Shown piece by piece: positions 4,053 through 23,723 of a stretch of 23,723 nt of DNA; within the stretch, counting starts at the first letter, position 1; each line of letters starts with the position of its first letter. A model generated the notes under the pieces. That model saw only the letters and a program-made list of their open reading frames with translations, had not been told where the DNA came from and did not search any database. The position numbers were made by a program, and so were the translations under genes. The stretch lies in the IMG/VR virus record IMGVR_UViG_2606217111_000003. One strand, 5' to 3'. Source of the DNA: a virus. Taxonomy: Duplodnaviria; Heunggongvirae; Uroviricota; Caudoviricetes.

Positions 4053-4549
4053 TGCCTCCATCATTACGAAAAGCCGTTGCTGCGGCTATTGGTGGCGGGG
4101 CTATTGCTATAGCATCTGTGTTAATCACTGGCCCAAGTGGTAACGATGGTCTGGAAGGCGTCAGCTACATACCATATAAAGATATCGTTGGTGTATGGAC
4201 TGTATGTTACGGGCATACCGGAAAAGACATTATGCTCGGTAAAACGTATACCGAAGCAGAATGCAAAGCCCTCCTGAATAAAGACCTTGCCACTGTCGCC
4301 AGACAAATTAACCCGTACATCAAAGTCGATATACCGGAAACAACGCGCGGCGCTCTTTACTCGTTCGTTTACAACGTTGGTGCTGGAAATTTCAGAACAT
4401 CGACGCTTCTTCGCAAAATAAACCAGGGCGATATCAAAGGCGCATGTGATCAGCTACGGCGCTGGACATACGCTGGCGGTAAGCAATGGAAAGGGCTGAT
4501 GACTCGCCGTGAGATTGAGCGTGAAGTCTGTTTGTGGGGGCAACAATGA
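4052..4549 (+). CDS. R: SAR endolysin (phage-21 R21-type lysozyme with N-terminal signal-anchor-release domain)
   Basis: N-terminal Gly/Ala-rich weakly hydrophobic segment [20 protein letters not shown] followed by a lysozyme-like domain; start overlaps the S stop. Confidence 0.9.
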
Positions 4550-4983
4550 GTAGAGTAACCGTGATTATCTCCGCTCTGGTTATCTGCATCATCGTCTGCC
4601 TGTCATGGGCTGTTAATCATTACCGTGATAACGCCATGACCTACAAAGAACAGCGCGATAAAGCCACATCCATCATCGCTGATATGCAGAAGCGTCAACG
4701 TGATGTAGCAGAACTCGACGCAAGATATACAAAGGAACTTGCTGATGCTAACGCGACTATCGAAAGTCTCCGTGCTGATGTTTCTGCTGGGCGTAAGCGC
4801 CTGCAAGTCGCCGCCACCTGTGCAAAGTCAACGACCGGAGCCAGCAGCATGGGCGATGGAGAAAGCCCAAGACTTACAGCAGATGCTGAACTCAATTATT
4901 ACCGTCTCCGAAGTGGAATCGACAGGATAACCGCGCAGGTTAACTACTTGCAGGAATACATCAGGACGCAATGCCTTCGATGA
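4546..4983 (+). CDS. Rz: Rz i-spanin
   Basis: [30 protein letters not shown]... N-terminal TM then coiled-coil, lambda Rz-like; ATGA overlap with R. Confidence 0.85.
4739..4930 (+). CDS. Rz1: Rz1 o-spanin (outer-membrane lipoprotein) embedded in the +1 frame of Rz
   Basis: Signal peptide plus lipobox LLGVSAC, Pro-rich mature part, fully nested in Rz. Confidence 0.8.
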
Positions 4984-5425
4984 TAGCGATAATTTTACTC
5001 ATCATCCTTCACATCTGGCTCTGTAGACAGGGTGGTGATCACTTCTGGAGTGAATCCAGATTAAACATCTCATTGCTGATGCTTGAAGTTGAGCATCTGG
5101 CGCGCGGTAAGGGGCTGCGTTGAGATAAGAGCCAGTTCATTACAAAGCCTATCTACGGGTGGGCTTGATAATGAAACCGGAATTTATTCTGGGCAACCAG
5201 TTACGGCAGTACAGCGAAACAACCCAAGCCAGTAAGTGGGGAAATAACACTGGCAGCCACTGAAAGATGAACCTCCAGCCTTATGGCAAAAAAGATTCTT
5301 TGTGGTGGCGGACTGATGGAAAGACATCGGTTATTGCAGAGACCATTCAATGAGTGGTCTCGACAATGGCTTATATCCTGCTAAGAGTGATTAACTGGGT
5401 GGCAAAAGTTCACCACCAACATCAA

Positions 5426-5857
5426 TTAGATTAAATTATTTCGATAAGCAGAATCGATTAGAGCGTTCATAAAGAGATACTCAACATCTTCGGTATAGTC
5501 GATGTCTATTGGAGCTGTTGAGTCAAGCGCCCCAAAATGCATGCAATTGTTCCAATCAAGAAAAATTTTATGAAACTCCTGTTTTTTTCCATCTCGCGAT
5601 GTGTAAAAAGTAATAACCCCAATTAATGAGCCTTCGTGAAGTGAAAGCTTACTTTCTGTAAAACACTTAAAGCGTAGCTGTGGAATTGAAACCTCAAGCT
5701 CTCCATCATTTAGCTCTATGGAAATTTGCTTATTAAGGTCTCGTTTGTTATTCCATGCGGTGTTAACACGTTCTAATAAATCATTCGTATTTTGCTGTAA
5801 TAACTCACCTTTCCTAGAAAGTAACTGTGACAATCCGATAAACGTTAATGAGCTCAT
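5426..5857 (-). CDS. Hypothetical protein (143 aa), AT-rich antisense gene between lysis cassette and terminase; function unknown
   Basis: Only sizeable ORF on the minus strand not nested in a + gene; clearly AT-richer than flanks; aaggtg Shine-Dalgarno before ATG 5857 (longer form from 5884 would overlap terS); same position and orientation as lambda bor but no sequence resemblance. Confidence 0.6.
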   Translation of the reverse strand: MSSLTFIGLSQLLSRKGELLQQNTNDLLERVNTAWNNKRDLNKQISIELNDGELEVSIPQLRFKCFTESKLSLHEGSLIGVITFYTSRDGKKQEFHKIFLDWNNCMHFGALDSTAPIDIDYTEDVEYLFMNALIDSAYRNNLI

Positions 5858-5877
5858 AAATTCACCTTTGAGAAAAA

Positions 5878-6429
5878 ATGGCACTCACAGACAAGCAAGA
5901 GATGTTCTGTCGCGAGTACCTCATCGATTTAAACGCCACGCAAGCGGCTATTCGGGCGGGGTACAGCGCAAAAACAGCCAACCGTACCGCATCCGAAAAC
6001 CTGTCAAAACCTGACATCAAGTTAAGAATCGCCGAACTGAAAGCGCAACGCAATGATCTTGTTGGTATTAATGCAGAATATGTACTTAATCGCCTTATTG
6101 AAATCGACCAGATGGATGTGCTTGACATTCTCCTGCAAAACGGTGAGCTAAAACCCATTAAAGACTGGCCTAAGGTATGGCGCACAACGTTATCAGGAAT
6201 GGATGTCGTGGAGATGGCATCCGCAGATAGCGCCGCACTTCTGAAGAAAATCAAATGGCCTGATAAGGTTAAAAACCTTGAGTTGCTCGGGCGTCATGTT
6301 TCTGTTCAGGCGTTTAAAGACAATGTCAAAAATGAAGTGACTGGTGCTGACGGAGGACCAGTCAGAACAGAAATTACCAACTTAACGCCGGAGCAGGTTG
6401 CAGAAGCGTATAGAAAAATGATGGGCTAA
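5878..6429 (+). CDS. Terminase small subunit
   Basis: 183 aa, N-terminus [34 protein letters not shown] typical of small terminase HTH domains; directly precedes the large terminase. Confidence 0.85.
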
Positions 6430-17000: not shown

Positions 17001-17188
17001 CGTTTAACAGCCTGCCGGACGGGCTGTCCTACCTTCTCAATCCGGTTGACGCCGGGTTAATTCCTTATACAGCACTTAAAGATGGCTCTGTCGATTTGTA
17101 CGATATTGCTCTTTTGAATGACCATCTGGCGGTAAAAGCGGATAACCAGCGGCGCATTGAGAAATGGAGAGAGGATAATGAACGCTGA
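16946..17188 (+). other. Programmed -1 ribosomal frameshift site (a_aat_ttt / t_ttt_ttg) and 81-codon -1 frame extension (GT-like chaperone fusion)
   Basis: Heptamer A AAT TTT is phased with the chaperone frame at 16946-16952; the -1 frame is open from there to TGA 17186-17188 and overlaps the tape measure start. Confidence 0.6.
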
Positions 17189-19166
17189 AACTATTAAAGA
17201 TTTCCTCGTCTCGCTTGGCTTCAGTGTGGATGATGCAGGAGCGAAAAAGTTCGGTTCTGTCCTCGCCGGTACAACTGCAAATGTCATCAAAATGGGGCTG
17301 GCCGTTGAAGGAGCCGCGCTGTCCGTGGTGGCCTTCACGGCTAAGATCGCCTCCGGTCTGGATAATCTTTACTGGGCGTCACAGCGCACTGGAGCGACAG
17401 TCCAGGGAATTCAGTCTATTGGCTATGCGGTTTCGCAGGTTGGCGGCAGCGTGGACGCTGCGCGATCTTCTCTGGAAAGCCTCTCCCGGTTTATTCGTAA
17501 TAATCCCGGTGCAGAGGGATTTCTGAATCGCCTGGGGGTACAGACACGGGATGCCAGCGGTAACATGCGTGACATGGCCGCTATTTTTACAGGTGTAGGC
17601 CAGAAGCTCAGCGGCATGCCGTATTACCGGGCTAACCAGTATGCGCAGATGCTGGGCATTGACGAAAATACCCTTATGGCGATGCGTCGGGGTGTGGGTG
17701 GTTTCTCCGGGCAGTACAGCGCAATGGCGAAAGCTATCGGCTTCAATGCTGACGAGGCGGCCAGAAGCTCCAACAAATTTATGACCTCCCTGCGTGAGTT
17801 TAGCGCGATGGCAGGCATGGCCCGTGACAAAATCGGCTCTAATCTTGCGGGTGGGCTTGCGGGTTCGCTGGACCCCCTGCGCCGCCATATCCTGGACAAC
17901 TTCCCTCGTATCGAGCTGACCCTGACGAAAGCCATAAAAGGCATTCTGGCGCTCGGGGATATTATCGGGCGGCTGTTCTTCAGACTGATTGAAGGAACAT
18001 CAGGTCTCATCACCTGGTGGCAATCGCTGGATAAGCAAACGCGGCAGTTGATCTCGCTGTTTGGCGCACTGACGATTGCGCTGCGCATTCTGAACAGTAC
18101 GTTCTGGATGTCGCCGATTGGCCTTATTACTGCGCTGGCGGCGGGGATTGCCCTTCTGTGGGAGGACTATCAGACCTGGAAGGAAGGCGGCGACAGCCTG
18201 ATTGACTGGGGCAAGTGGAAACCGGAGGTCGATGCCGCGTTGAAGATGGTTCGTGACCTTAAAACAACCGTTAACGACCTGGCGAAAGCGCTGGCGAAAC
18301 TGCTCAATATTGACCCCAAATCATGGTCCCTGAAGTGGGATTTCAGCAACTTCATCGACCAGATGGGCGAATTCAGCAAAATGCTGAACATGATCGCCGA
18401 CCTGCTCAACGCTATCAAAGATGGCCGCTGGGCTGATGCCGTCAGCATCAGCAAACAGATACTTAATCAGGGCAGCGAAAATCCGTCAGCGATGCCGATG
18501 GTTACAGACAGCGCTAACAGTACTGCCGACTGGATTAAAGAGCACTGGGGATTCGATCCTCGCAGCGTGGGCCGGACGGTACGCGGCTGGTTTGGTGATG
18601 ATGAGCCGGAACAATATGCACAGGCTACGAAACGAGGAGAACGGAATAACAATCCGGGAAACCTTAATTTTGCTGGTCAGGCAGGGGCTTCTCTTGAACG
18701 CCCGGGCGGGCGATTTGCCAGATTTGAAACTGCTTTTGATGGATTACGGGCTCTTGCTCGTCAGTTAATGCTGTACGCCGGACGGGGAATAAACAGTGTG
18801 GAGAAAATTATCTCTACCTGGGCACCTGCGTCTGATAATAACAACACAACTGCGTATATCAGGGCTGTATCGCAACGACTGGGAGTGGATCCCCGGGCTG
18901 CCCTGAATATGAGCGATCCGCAAACCATGTCAGCATTGATGAGCAGCATTATCCAGCATGAAAATGGAAGAAATATCTATTCCCGAGAGCTGATTAATAA
19001 GGCTGCCGTGGCAGGAATTAGTGGCAAAGTGACAGAGGTTAACCAGCAAAATACCTACCACATTTACGGTGGCGGAGATCCGCACGCTGTCGGTAATGAG
19101 GTTGCACGTCGGCAACAGTCTGCAAATGCTCAGGTCATGCGAAGTAATCAGGTGAGGGTGGGTTAG
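17178..19166 (+). CDS. Tail tape measure protein
   Basis: 662 aa from ATG 17178 (RBS ggagagagg; in-frame ATG 17157 is the alternative); Ala/Gly-rich helical N-terminus with internal hydrophobic segments; follows the chaperone pair. Confidence 0.85.
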   Translation: MNAETIKDFLVSLGFSVDDAGAKKFGSVLAGTTANVIKMGLAVEGAALSVVAFTAKIASGLDNLYWASQRTGATVQGIQSIGYAVSQVGGSVDAARSSLESLSRFIRNNPGAEGFLNRLGVQTRDASGNMRDMAAIFTGVGQKLSGMPYYRANQYAQMLGIDENTLMAMRRGVGGFSGQYSAMAKAIGFNADEAARSSNKFMTSLREFSAMAGMARDKIGSNLAGGLAGSLDPLRRHILDNFPRIELTLTKAIKGILALGDIIGRLFFRLIEGTSGLITWWQSLDKQTRQLISLFGALTIALRILNSTFWMSPIGLITALAAGIALLWEDYQTWKEGGDSLIDWGKWKPEVDAALKMVRDLKTTVNDLAKALAKLLNIDPKSWSLKWDFSNFIDQMGEFSKMLNMIADLLNAIKDGRWADAVSISKQILNQGSENPSAMPMVTDSANSTADWIKEHWGFDPRSVGRTVRGWFGDDEPEQYAQATKRGERNNNPGNLNFAGQAGASLERPGGRFARFETAFDGLRALARQLMLYAGRGINSVEKIISTWAPASDNNNTTAYIRAVSQRLGVDPRAALNMSDPQTMSALMSSIIQHENGRNIYSRELINKAAVAGISGKVTEVNQQNTYHIYGGGDPHAVGNEVARRQQSANAQVMRSNQVRVG

Positions 19167-19753: not shown

Positions 19754-20055
19754 TGACAATTCAGGAAATTCCGCTGACAGCGGACAACCAGCAGTTCAGC
19801 ATCGTCCTGGGTGGTGTCACCTGGCGGATTAGCATCATATGGCGCGATCCTTACTGGATTATGGACCTGCAGAACGACAGAGGGGAGCCGGTAATCTCCG
19901 GTATACCTCTCGTCACTGGCGCTGACCTGCTGGCGCAGTACGCCTGTATGGGACTTGGTTTTAAGCTGTTGGTGGTCTGCGATGACAACACACAGGATTA
20001 TCCCACGAAAACTGACCTGGGCGGGCGCAGTCATTTACTGGTATCAACGGAGTAA
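19753..20055 (+). CDS. Post-tape-measure tail protein (function unassigned)
   Basis: 100 aa, ATGA overlap with the upstream gene. Confidence 0.55.
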   Translation: MTIQEIPLTADNQQFSIVLGGVTWRISIIWRDPYWIMDLQNDRGEPVISGIPLVTGADLLAQYACMGLGFKLLVVCDDNTQDYPTKTDLGGRSHLLVSTE

Positions 20056-20057
20056 GC

Positions 20058-21125
20058 ATGACACAGAACTGGATGAGACATTTCGAGCTGCAGCTTGTGG
20101 ACGGGAACGGTCAGGGAATTGAGCTAAGTGATTTCAAAGTCACCTTTACGATCGACTGGTTCAACATCAGCAGCGCGTCCCGGGTAGGGACTATCAAAAT
20201 TTATAACCTCTCGGCAGATACTGTGAACCGAATTACCGGGCAGGAGTTTTCGAAAGTGCGTCTGATTGCGGGTTACGACGGTATCGCGCCGGAGGTGTCG
20301 GCAAGCGATGTCGGGACCGTGCGGGAGGTTGATGCGGCGGACGTGGGCCAGAGTGATGGCCGCAACTACGGACTGATTTTCAGCGGTGAAATTCGCTACT
20401 CGGTCACAGGAAAAGACAGCCCGGTTGATTCCTACGTCCTGATTCAGGCAGCCGATACAGATCTGGCTTTTGCCACCAGTATAACCTCACAGACGCTGGC
20501 TGCCGGTTACACGGTCGCTGATGTGAACCGTGCGCTGATGAAAGACTTCGAAGCCAAAGGTGCGACCGAAGGCCTGACGCCTGAAATGCCTGCTACTGTA
20601 TTCCCCCGGGGGCGGGTACTCTTTGGCATGACGCGGCATCTTATGGATAATGTAGCCGGGCAATGTGGCGCAACATGGCAATTCGTGGATGGTCAACGCC
20701 AGATGGTGGCGAATAATGAATATGTTCACGAAGCGATTGTGCTCAACAGCGCTACCGGGCTTATTGGCATGCCGCAGCAGACTATCGGTAACGGCGTAAA
20801 CGTCCGCGCGCTTATTAATCCGAACATCCGGGTTAACGGGCTCATTCAACTGGATCAGGCTTCAGTGTATCGTACCGCGTTGTCGAACAACGATATCGCG
20901 ATGGCCGGTGGGCAGATCACCGACCAGAACACGGACGGAAATATTACGCTAAGCGGCACCACATCGCAGCCTGCCAGCATCGCAACGGATGGCGTTTATA
21001 TTGTGCGTGGGATTATGTACACTGGCGACACAAGGGGGCAGGCGTGGTACATGGATATGATGTGTGAAGCACGTGGCGCGGCTGATCTACTTTCGTCCTC
21101 AGCGCAGCAAAGGATTTATTCATGA
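20058..21125 (+). CDS. Tail/baseplate-associated protein (hub-like candidate)
   Basis: 355 aa, 2-nt gap from the upstream gene; last high-GC structural gene before the AT-rich island. Confidence 0.55.
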   Translation: MTQNWMRHFELQLVDGNGQGIELSDFKVTFTIDWFNISSASRVGTIKIYNLSADTVNRITGQEFSKVRLIAGYDGIAPEVSASDVGTVREVDAADVGQSDGRNYGLIFSGEIRYSVTGKDSPVDSYVLIQAADTDLAFATSITSQTLAAGYTVADVNRALMKDFEAKGATEGLTPEMPATVFPRGRVLFGMTRHLMDNVAGQCGATWQFVDGQRQMVANNEYVHEAIVLNSATGLIGMPQQTIGNGVNVRALINPNIRVNGLIQLDQASVYRTALSNNDIAMAGGQITDQNTDGNITLSGTTSQPASIATDGVYIVRGIMYTGDTRGQAWYMDMMCEARGAADLLSSSAQQRIYS

Positions 21126-21469
21126 AGCGTATGAAGTTAGTTTTGACAATTTCGTTATTATTTTCTTGTTCAGCAGCTTTTGCTGATTTGCAATGCGGCG
21201 GATATCTACTTCATGCAGCTGATAACGGTTGGACAAAAATCAACGGTGAGCAGGTAACATCACAGAAGATTACGTTTCTTGGTAAGAAAGATGACTGGGA
21301 CAACGTTAAAACTAACATGGGCCTGATGCCTTCTCGCGATGGCAACAATTACGGCTTTGAGTTTGTGAAGCGTAACGGAAAAGCTTTCCTGAACGTCCAG
21401 CTTCTGCAGAACAGCATGGATGCGCCTAAAATCATCGGATCATTCCCTTGTAAAAAGGCGTTACGCTAA
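21122..21469 (+). CDS. Small secreted protein (115 aa) with N-terminal signal peptide, two Cys in the mature part; function unknown
   Basis: MKRMKLVLTISLLFSCSAAFA then polar mature domain; AT-rich; ATGA overlap with the last tail gene. Confidence 0.6.
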   Translation: MKRMKLVLTISLLFSCSAAFADLQCGGYLLHAADNGWTKINGEQVTSQKITFLGKKDDWDNVKTNMGLMPSRDGNNYGFEFVKRNGKAFLNVQLLQNSMDAPKIIGSFPCKKALR

Positions 21470-21564: not shown

Positions 21565-22338
21565 ATGGCGGCAGGCATCCCATTAGAAAAAGCGCAAAAA
21601 TATATTGAACAATTCAATGCGCTTCTATTGGATAGGGAAAGTTTAGATCCCTTCACTGAAAAGAAAATTCGAGAGGAACTTTCTGTCTCTCCAACGCCTG
21701 CTACCAACATTGCACTATCTTATCTGGATGCAATAACCGGAAAGATTGAAAGCGCGTTACGTTATCTCAGGATAAGCCTAGAAGTAAACGATGTAACGTT
21801 GGCAATGCACTATCATCACATTTTAATTAATACATTTAGCTATAATGAACTCAAGGATGTCTATGTCCCGCTGGCAAAGAAGTATCGGACAAAACTCTTT
21901 AGTCACAACGCATACAGTTGGGCGTACCGTTGCGGCGAGCGTGAACAGTTAAAATTTTATATGGAAGAGCACATTAAGCTTCTTTCTGAATCAGAAGGCA
22001 GGAGTAATGCTATGAAGCACAAAGAAGAACTCCTTGCAGAAATGGATAATTTCTATAGCGCCACACAGTGCTCGAAGGAACAGTTCCAGACCTTAGCATC
22101 CATAATCTGGGGCTTGCTAAGTGAATACAAGGCTACGACAGGTTTCGTTCAGCTTAGTGGAAGCGGTTGCTATGTTGTTGATATTAAAAATCTTGAGCCT
22201 AAAACTATTGCCAAAATGAACTTCGACTTGGCTGATAGAGTCTGCGCTGAATCTAAACTGGATGATTGTTCCCTGTTAGCTAGATTTACCTCTCCGCGTC
22301 AGTTGCATACGGGGGTGAGCTACCATGTCGGTAACTAG
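21565..22338 (+). CDS. Hypothetical protein (257 aa), AT-rich island gene; function unknown
   Basis: Long uninterrupted ORF in AT-rich DNA; 14-nt overlap with the downstream 93-aa ORF suggests an operon; no motif I can assign. Confidence 0.6.
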   Translation: MAAGIPLEKAQKYIEQFNALLLDRESLDPFTEKKIREELSVSPTPATNIALSYLDAITGKIESALRYLRISLEVNDVTLAMHYHHILINTFSYNELKDVYVPLAKKYRTKLFSHNAYSWAYRCGEREQLKFYMEEHIKLLSESEGRSNAMKHKEELLAEMDNFYSATQCSKEQFQTLASIIWGLLSEYKATTGFVQLSGSGCYVVDIKNLEPKTIAKMNFDLADRVCAESKLDDCSLLARFTSPRQLHTGVSYHVGN

Positions 22339-22606
22339 CAATCAGATTCTCGATACCGCTCGATTATGTCTGTCTGAAAATATTGAGAGTGGATTTCGAA
22401 GCGCTATCTCAAGGGCGTATTACAGTATGTTACATGAGTCTATTAGCTCACTTACTGCCATACCGCATTTTACCCATGAGCATCACAAAAATACTGTGGG
22501 TTATATGTCAACGCCCTCAGAGTGCAAATCAGAGCCATACCCGACAAATACACTGAAATCCCTAGCTTTCGTACTTCGCCAGTGGCGGGATGCTAGAAAT
22601 GAATAG
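22325..22606 (+). CDS. Hypothetical protein, 3'-truncated by IS2 (93 aa as encoded; stop codon TAG is the first three bases of the IS2 left inverted repeat); contains an R-x6-H segment (SRAYYSMLH)
   Basis: ORF overlaps the 257-aa gene and runs without a stop into the IS2 end at 22604. Confidence 0.5.
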   Translation: MSVTSNQILDTARLCLSENIESGFRSAISRAYYSMLHESISSLTAIPHFTHEHHKNTVGYMSTPSECKSEPYPTNTLKSLAFVLRQWRDARNE

Positions 22607-22817
22607 ACTGGCCCCCTGAATCTCCAGACAACCAATATCACTTAAATAAGTGATAGTCTTAATACTAGTTTTTAGACTAGTCATTGGAGAACAGATGATT
22701 GATGTCTTAGTAGACTGGCCCCCTGAATCTCCAGACAACCAATATCACTTAAATAAGTGATAGTCTTAATACTAGTTTTTAGACTAGTCATTGGAGAACA
22801 GATGATTGATGTCTTAG
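22604..22817 (+). repeat. Perfect tandem direct repeat, 2 x 107 bp, each unit the IS2 left inverted repeat plus leader and first 16 nt of insC
   Basis: Units 22604-22710 and 22711-22817 are identical base for base; canonical IS2 carries this segment once. Confidence 0.9.
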
Positions 22818-23167
22818 GGCCGGAGAAACGCAGACGGCGTACCACACAGGAAAAGATCGCAATTGTTCAGCAGAGCTTTGAACCGGGGATGACGGTCTCC
22901 CTCGTTGCCCGGCAACATGGTGTAGCAGCCAGCCAGTTATTTCTCTGGCGTAAGCAATACCAGGAAGGAAGTCTTACTGCTGTCGCCGCCGGAGAACAGG
23001 TTGTTCCTGCCTCTGAACTTGCTGCCGCCATGAAGCAGATTAAAGAGCTCCAGCGCCTGCTCGGCAAGAAAACGATGGAAAATGAACTCCTCAAAGAAGC
23101 CGTTGAATATGGACGGGCAAAAAAGTGGATAGCGCACGCGCCCTTATTGCCCGGGGATGGGGAGTAA
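22802..23167 (+). CDS. insC: IS2 transposase OrfA (InsC, HTH DNA-binding protein)
   Basis: 121 aa, [56 protein letters not shown]... matches IS2 InsC. Confidence 0.95.
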
Positions 23168-23723
23168 GCTTAGTCAGCCGTTGTCTCCGGGTGTCGCGTG
23201 CGCAGTTGCACGTCATTCTCAGACGAACCGATGACTGGATGGATGGCCGCCGCAGTCGTCACACTGATGATACGGATGTGCTTCTCCGTATACACCATGT
23301 TATCGGAGAGCTGCCCACGTATGGTTATCGTCGGGTATGGGCGCTGCTTCGCAGACAGGCAGAACTTGATGGTATGCCTGCGATCAATGCCAAACGTGTT
23401 TACCGGATCATGCGCCAGAATGCGCTGTTGCTTGAGCGAAAACCTGCTGTACCGCCATCGAAACGGGCACATACAGGCAGAGTGGCTGTGAAAGAAAGTA
23501 ATCAGCGATGGTGCTCTGACGGGTTCGAGTTCCGCTGTGATAACGGAGAAAAACTGCGAGTCACGTTCGCGCTGGACTGCTGTGACCGTGAGGCACTGCA
23601 CTGGGCGGTCACTACGGGCGGCTTCAACAGTGAAACAGTACAGGACGTCATGCTGGGAGCGGTGGAACGCCGCTTCGGCAACGAGCTTCCGGCGTCTCCA
23701 GTAGAGTGGCTGACGGATAATGG
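23125..23723 (+). CDS. insD: IS2 transposase OrfB (InsD, DDE catalytic domain), partial; expressed as an OrfAB fusion by -1 frameshift at aaaaaag (23119-23125)
   Basis: From GTG 23125 in the -1 frame: [43 protein letters not shown]...; runs to the window edge. Confidence 0.9.

Follow-up and report, generated by a model that had tools for sequence, protein, structure and literature searches.

The 93-codon open reading frame near the end of the analysed DNA is, very likely, what remains of a 131-codon prophage gene for a HEPN-domain protein: the insertion sequence IS2 has landed between codons 93 and 94, duplicated the target ATGAA and brought in an in-frame TAG, and the structural module of the prophage is, judging by a sister assembly, not cut short. 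The DNA, hereafter called the window, is the whole stretch of 23,723 nt. In the proposed course of events, IS2 would have transposed between codons 93 and 94 and duplicated ATGAA; as the element starts with TAG, in frame with the gene, translation would stop immediately and yield a 93-aa fragment. If the insertion is simple, ATGAAGCTGACTATGATCTG and the spike gene should come after the IS2 right end (...GGAAATATAGGGGCAAATCCA). The coordinates of all features are collected in Table 1.

Table 1. Features at the IS2-interrupted locus (window coordinates unless another sequence is named)
Feature	Position	Strand	Remarks
TPR-like (257–260 aa) + HEPN gene pair	window 21565–22603; L001 6066–7221; L010–L016 about 5232–6396		
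Partner gene, 257 aa	21565–22338	+	TPR-like helical repeats (residues ~7–187) and small alpha/beta C-terminal domain
HEPN gene (AF0298-like, HEPN-T type), codons 1–93 of 131	22325–22603	+	part 5′ of IS2
Truncated ORF, 93 aa	22325–22606	+	stop is TAG 22604–22606
ATGAA, 5-bp target site	22599–22603		left copy of target-site duplication
TAG, IS2 bases 1–3	22604–22606	+	in-frame stop of truncated gene
First IS2 copy, nt 1–107	22604–22710	+	IRL, promoter region and first 5 orfA codons; 0 mismatches to DH1
42-bp left inverted repeat (IRL)	22604–22645		IRL length from PMC3299598
Second IS2 copy, nt 1–1013	22711–23723	+	runs off window end; 13 differences vs DH1 (K-12), natural allele
IS2 orfA, 121 aa	22802–23167	+	intact
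A6G slippery site (23119–23125) and orfB −1 frame	23119–23723	+	open to window end

At the left junction the window reads ...CGG GAT GCT AGA AAT GAA / TAG ACT GGC CCC CTG AAT CTC C..., where the slash marks the last base of the prophage gene. The reference IS2 was the copy of E. coli DH1 (L006 1505–2835, 1331 bp), which is flanked by a 5-bp duplication of GTTAG. Its left end, TAGACTGGCCCC..., is matched by the window from 22604 onwards with no mismatch over nt 1–107. As this DNA is the IS2 left end, the stop codon of the 93-aa ORF is supplied by IS2, and the claim of the earlier note that the TAG is the first three bases of the element is confirmed by both the sequence at 22604 and the DH1 match. 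The range 22599–22713 given in that note holds the 5-bp target and a partial IS2 left end (nt 1–107), and a second IS2 left end begins at 22711. The same left junction was also observed in three independent assemblies (L003–L005) and in the IMG/VR contig L008 (IMGVR_UViG_2585427779_000001), whose 9032 nt 5′ of IS2 show no mismatch to the window. Outside the window it was recovered from this single IMG/VR contig and from Logan and ENA short-read contigs, which end within IS2 after 30 and 55 nt of the element, and from no others; the GTDB representative genomes and JGI metagenomes gave no match.

The native form of the gene is preserved in IS2-free prophages. In E. coli F11 (L001 6826–7221) and KOr019 (L002 6826–7221) the allele encodes 131 aa from the same ATG start. 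Codons 1–93 of the F11 allele encode the same residues as the window, and the KOr019 protein differs there by one amino acid (I28F). Both alleles agree with the window up to 22603 and then continue with GCTGACTATGAT... (translated ADYDLTNVTVSKEMGQDAIEAAELYFERWEQLKSARVS) for 38 further codons, so that the protein past codon 93 is ADYDLTNVTVSKEMGQDAIEAAELYFERWEQLKSAR(V/A)S. The locus is present in 27 of the 5,426 complete E. coli genomes; in all 27 the match to the window ends exactly at 22603, and in none of them does IS2 occupy this site. A protein search gave a homologue length of 131–132 aa in 23 of 28 clusters, and PHROG 5176, a profile of 132 positions, was matched end to end. Beyond residue 93, A94, D95, Y96, A115, F119, W122, K126, A130 and S131 are at least 90% conserved. 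The full-length protein occurs on at least 1000 contigs, and the 93-aa form on a few short-read contigs (four in one look-up and seven in another; Logan/ENA). Comparison with IS2-free homologous prophages, which had been proposed as a check, hence identifies the 93-aa ORF as a shortened form of the 131-aa gene, and the suggestion that the native gene ran on beyond the IS2 site is correct.

The right side of the element lies beyond the window, which ends at IS2 nt 1013. The right junction was therefore read from a sister assembly, that is, from another isolate than the left junction, by using a query composed of the IS2 right end, 0–10 nt and GCTGACTATGATCTG.... One contig was found in IMG/VR (L009, IMGVR_UViG_2585427725_000002) and none in the JGI metagenomes. 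Its minus strand reads ...CTGGAAATATAGGGGCAAATCCA / ATGAA / GCTGACTATGATCTGACGAATG..., or in short ...GGGGCAAATCCA/ATGAA/GCTGACTATG..., and the order is IS2 right end, ATGAA (the same five bases as window 22599–22603), the last 38 codons of the gene, the terminator hairpin and the spike gene. When the left flank of the window and the right flank of L009 were joined minus one ATGAA, the resulting 503 nt were identical to the uninterrupted site of F11. Since the empty site is rebuilt exactly, the event is, judged from these sequences, a simple insertion of IS2 that duplicated 5 bp of its target and is present in a small lineage. The duplication is thus shown across two assemblies, with the left side in IMG 2585427779 and the right side in IMG 2585427725, both of the same numeric isolate batch. 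Accordingly, the two things that the earlier note had expected past the IS2 right end, namely a duplicate of 22599–22603 and the missing 3′ coding sequence, are both found in L009.

IS2, a member of the IS3 family, transposes by a copy-out/paste-in pathway via a minicircle; its left terminus is a 42-bp IRL (PMC3299598). The full-length element has 1331 bp with a 41-bp IRR, the right end being seen here in the sister contig L009 only. The part of the window from 22711 to its end differs from DH1 IS2 nt 1–1013 by 13 mismatches (98.7% identity), which span window positions 23047–23703 (nt 337–993), and 11 of the 13 cluster in nt 777–993. The IS2 that adjoins the right junction in L009 shares only A606C with these 13 differences, and the window differs from it at 11 positions (nt 777–993). 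Many other E. coli genomes carry the window allele (99.9% identity over 724 nt). Both orfA and orfB read away from the IRL, and the translation of 23125–23721 contains no stop codon; RefSeq treats the DH1 copy as a single CDS that includes a programmed frameshift. The ATG at 22695 in the first IS2 copy opens a chimeric ORF of 21 codons. Thus, the element has the left end (nt 1–107), the intact orfA, the A6G site, the open orfB frame and the 5-bp target duplication in common with E. coli K-12 IS2, and is distinguished from it by the 13 substitutions and by the first 107 nt, which are present twice in tandem. Inactivation of operon genes such as gal and lac by IS2 is a classic observation. As in those cases, a gene is broken and a short target duplication is formed; nothing essential is different except that the site is new. 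Both the element and its effect are familiar, and we regard this as an ordinary gene knock-out.

As for the prophage itself, the window represents a lambdoid-type arm with genes for a P-like helicase loader, NinB, NinG, Q, endolysin, Rz, terminase, portal and protease, followed by a capsid gene and a contractile tail of the E217/PhiTE-like type according to Pfam labels. Past the tape measure gene come genes for a Dit-like protein (195 aa), a plug (100 aa), a hub (355 aa, PHROG 196), a secreted protein of 115 aa, the 257-aa protein and the HEPN protein. In the IS2-free relatives (F11, KOr019 and L007) the HEPN gene is followed by those for the spike, sheath initiator, baseplate J, wedge, fibre and assembly protein. 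Past IS2, L009 contains ORFs of 250, 117, 399, 226, 271 and 200 aa, which correspond to the spike, sheath initiator, baseplate J, wedge, fibre and fibre-assembly proteins. The same order was observed in Enterobacter (L010–L013, HEPN protein 53% identical) and in Rahnella-type prophages (L014–L016, 69%). In the relatives examined, the TPR-like and HEPN genes always lie between the baseplate hub and spike genes, and this slot is kept across prophages of Escherichia, Enterobacter, Klebsiella, Rahnella and others, a myovirus-tailed Enterobacterales family.

As the baseplate and fibre genes are natively 3′ of the IS2 site, their lack before IS2 says nothing about a defect. It had been argued that, with only three genes past the tape measure, the tail module ends early, which together with the cut gene would point to a defective prophage or to an IS2-mediated rearrangement; an early end is not supported by the gene order, and a rearrangement finds no support in a locus with native gene order and a sister contig that is contiguous past IS2. 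Going by the sister assembly, the structural module is not cut short, and the remaining baseplate and fibre genes are located past IS2. Hence, on present evidence the prophage should not be called tail-defective.

Four other explanations of parts of this picture were weighed, two of which concern the gene and its surroundings. For the 93-aa ORF to be a natural full-length gene, with IS2 having landed just past its end, one can point to the in-frame stop codon and nothing more. Such a natural gene end is refuted by the IS2-free alleles that read on in frame, by the homologue lengths of 131–132 aa and by the conservation of residues up to the C-terminus, and the model also shows that the fifth helix would be lost; we give this reading practically no credence. 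An IS2-mediated deletion or recombination that joined originally non-adjacent DNA, leaving a defective prophage without the remainder of the gene and the baseplate genes, is improbable as well. It draws on the fact that the window stops inside IS2 with its right flank beyond view, on the duplicated left end and the other IS2 allele than in L009, which indicate that the locus is not identical to that of the sister assemblies, and on two IS2 copies at one site being substrates for deletion. However, the gene order up to IS2 is native, the prophage 5′ of IS2 is identical to L008 over 9 kb, and the sister assembly displays the same site with a perfect 5-bp duplication and a contiguous downstream module.

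The other two concern the tandem repeat, for which a single simple insertion does not account. Positions 1–107 of IS2 occur twice as an exact tandem (22604–22710 and 22711–22817), in a register that is fixed by the differing bases 22603 and 22710 on one side and 22818 and 22604 on the other. It is the sole tandem repeat in the window, and its second copy carries the intact orfA and the open orfB frame. A 120-nt BLAST query across the tandem junction was uninformative, as both halves were placed together on one and the same IS2 end; a 25+25-nt query (nt 83–107 followed by nt 1–25), which can be seeded only by a true junction, was used instead. With this query the junction was found neither in the 5,426 complete E. 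coli genomes (~20,000–21,000 IS2 places) nor in 72,556 plasmids, IMG/VR or the GTDB representative genomes. Exact protein look-ups of two minus-strand ORFs spanning the junction likewise returned no match, and the IS2 of L008 runs on normally past nt 107 (...CTTAGGGCCG). Two readings of the repeat are left, namely a nested IS2 and an assembly overlap that was not trimmed. In the nested case, a second IS2 with the allele seen from 22711 would have inserted into the first one after nt 107, and the repeat would be real. This arrangement predicts the 5′ part of the gene, IS2a (nt 1–107), IS2b (nt 1–1331), IS2a (nt 103–1331), ATGAA and the 3′ part of the gene, or a recombined or deleted derivative thereof, and CTTAGGGCCGGAGAAACG would come after the IS2 right end (...GGAAATATAGGGGCAAATCCA). 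It is consistent with a duplication that starts exactly at IS2 nt 1 in an unshiftable register, with an IS2 body past the junction that is another natural allele than the one at the right flank of L009, and with the lack of any other tandem in the window, including the ~4.1–4.6 kb region where short-read assemblies break. The promoter region of IS2 is described as intrinsically curved and the element is said to prefer curved targets (PMC3299598), which also speaks for nesting. Against it stand the absence of the junction from the E. coli genomes, plasmids, IMG/VR and GTDB representatives searched, the absence from IMG/VR of the predicted inner right junction CCA-CTTAG-GGCCGG, the straight reading of L008 past nt 107 and the suspicious length of exactly 107; taken together, we put a nested IS2 somewhat below an even chance. 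A preference of IS2 for targets ending in ...TTAG was rejected as support, because the 148 TAG-ended left flanks in ~21,000 places are not above the 1/64 expectation. For an assembly artefact, in which a unique contig reaching K=107 bases into the repeat was joined untrimmed to an IS2 contig starting at nt 1, we consider the chances to be about even. An untrimmed join of this kind gives IS2 nt 1–K followed by IS2 from nt 1 with 100% identity, just as seen, and short-read contigs do end exactly k bases into IS2 (55 nt in the SPAdes-type ENA scaffold L004 and 30 nt in the k=31 Logan contig L003). The number 107 is odd and among the k values used in SPAdes/Unicycler runs. The structure is also unique among all collections searched, and L008 shows the normal continuation of IS2. 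On the other hand, there is no second overlap of this kind in the window, mainstream pipelines trim such overlaps, and the window bridges the repeat at ~4.1–4.6 kb where the short-read assemblies had broken off, a sign that it was assembled better. The 107-bp duplication of the left end is thus a possible artefact that calls for caution before it is interpreted.

Simple IS2 insertion remains the preferred explanation for the interrupted gene. When compared with PDB, the family profile of its full-length product matched the HEPN domain-containing structures 9xbd (E=3e-6) and 9xbc (E=1e-5) as well as AF0298 (2hsb, E=2e-3), and the segment DARNEADYDL aligns to DLRNRSDYDL of 9xbd. An AlphaFold2 model of a relative 89% identical in sequence (pLDDT 91.9) consists of five helices (5–17, 21–42, 53–62, 74–96 and 105–130). 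The best Foldseek match of the model was 2hsb (prob 1.0, TM 0.56–0.58); HEPN-MNT, sacsin HEPN and HepT structures came next with weak E-values (E about 1). For the 131-aa protein there was no Pfam family at E<=1, and it lies below the gathering score of PF05168. The 257-aa protein had no significant Pfam model either, and NCBIfam gave none for the 131-aa or the 257-aa protein. PADLOC 2023 gave zero families at E<=1 for the 115-, 257- and 131-aa proteins, and no publication was retrieved by a literature search that combined HEPN with UPF0332. Some databases already label relatives as "HEPN domain-containing" or "UPF0332 family".

In the homologue alignment R88, R91, N92, H53 and H54 are invariant. 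H53 and H54 lie at the start of the short helix 53–62, between the long helices, and E93, A94, D95 and Y96, at the end of helix 74–96, are at least 90% conserved. Members of the AF0298-like HEPN-T clade are described by Anantharaman et al. 2013 (PMC3710099) as having Asp at the His position of the Rx4-6H motif, together with an alternative conserved His in the region between helices 2 and 3. The present family displays the helical-bundle fold in the model, R-N with Asp in place of His, and the alternative conserved His. As this motif rule fits R91-N92, D95-Y96 and H53-H54, the interrupted gene is assigned, on profile, motif and model, to a small HEPN-domain protein of the AF0298-like HEPN-T type. 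The protein resembles AF0298 (2hsb; UPF0332) and 9xbd/9xbc in its helical-bundle fold, the R-N-x-x-D-Y motif, the Asp in place of the canonical His and the H53/H54 pair N-terminal to the motif; it is different in that it falls below the PF05168 threshold, has no MNT partner and is encoded inside a phage baseplate cluster. The IS2 cut between E93 and A94 falls inside the motif (R91-N-E/A-D95-Y96) at the end of the fourth helix, and according to the model the last helix (105–130) is lost. Because the motif is split and this helix is missing, the 93-aa product is very probably inactive. The 93-aa ORF should hence be annotated as a pseudogene, namely as the fragment of a 131-aa HEPN gene that IS2 has interrupted.

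Annotation of the intact gene is inconsistent. The 131-aa HEPN ORF bears no annotation in the RefSeq record of F11 (NZ_CP076123.1, L001 6826–7221) and is uncalled in GCA_022630355.1 (L007 6761–7156), whereas a near-identical ORF is annotated in KOr019 as WP_042108964.1. In addition, one 90%-identity cluster (136 members, representative P0029) contains the 131-aa HEPN protein together with its 93-aa fragment and also the 257-aa partner, which is unrelated to them. This mixed cluster has the look of a clustering artefact and may stem from gene calls that were fused over the 14-nt overlap of the two genes.

The HEPN gene is the second of the two overlapping genes. The model of the 257-aa protein (pLDDT 91.8) is composed of about nine helices of TPR-like repeats and a small alpha/beta domain. 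No nucleotidyltransferase match was obtained for this protein. It was thus rejected as an MNT antitoxin, and since the partner is no nucleotidyltransferase, the pair is not a HEPN-MNT module. The likeness to the HEPN/MNT type II (type VII) toxin-antitoxin systems (HepT/MntA, SO_3166/SO_3165) consists of the two overlapping genes, the second position of HEPN and the HEPN-MNT structures among the weak fold matches (E about 1); in contrast to those systems, the place of an MNT adenylyltransferase is taken by a 257-aa TPR-like protein upstream. Members of the two families are found together in the same genomes, where their locus tags are adjacent, and no INPHARED phage record contains the 257-aa/131-aa pair. 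Exact matches of the 257-aa protein were found on IS2-free contigs only. A strong terminator-like hairpin is situated 3′ of the pair in F11 (L001 7239–7258), and promoter-like sites upstream of the two genes do not exceed the frequency in shuffled sequence. The pair occupies the same position in every relative examined, in contrast to a sporadic moron.

The prophage HEPN proteins HepS (of Gifsy-1) and Tha are abortive-infection RNases that are triggered by tail proteins (PMC13043305). The protein studied here is likewise a small HEPN protein on a temperate phage of Enterobacteriaceae. HepS, however, acts solo, has a canonical RX4-6H motif and is encoded in another prophage region. By analogy, an RNase-type defence or abortive-infection/exclusion effector controlled by the TPR partner would be the most likely role, a proposal that we make with moderate to low confidence. 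A more far-reaching view, which we hold to be rather doubtful, is that the TPR-like/HEPN pair may form an uncharacterised abortive-infection/exclusion module of prophages, in which the TPR partner would restrain or activate an RNase effector, possibly with sensing of virion or tail proteins in the way of HepS/Tha; IS2 would then have produced a natural knock-out of the effector and, separately, the 107-bp repeat might be a genuine IS2-into-IS2 insertion. In any case, the pair is a conserved and unnamed TPR+HEPN unit in a baseplate cluster and a reasonable candidate for a prophage defence module, and the rare IS2-disrupted lineage provides a ready natural mutant for testing it.

Some minor observations were made in the neighbourhood of the pair and elsewhere in the prophage. 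The slot just before the TPR gene is variable in L010–L016 (about 4750–5130), where it mostly holds a small ORF of 102–116 aa, with one of 294 aa in L015. In the window this slot (21122–21469) encodes a 115-aa protein with a signal-peptide-like N-terminus (MKRMKLVLTISLLFSCSAAFA), which belongs to PHROG 3443, a family with no function assigned in PHROG. Short-read assemblies of the same prophage (18,589 nt in IMG/VR and 18,026 nt in Logan) start at about window position 4127–4640, inside endolysin/Rz, which implies that the lysis region is repeated elsewhere in those genomes, probably in another lambdoid prophage. Finally, since relatives of the tape measure protein (17157–19166) show a Pfam SLT match, this protein appears to carry a predicted peptidoglycan-cleaving domain; the relative in KOr019 is annotated as "lytic transglycosylase".
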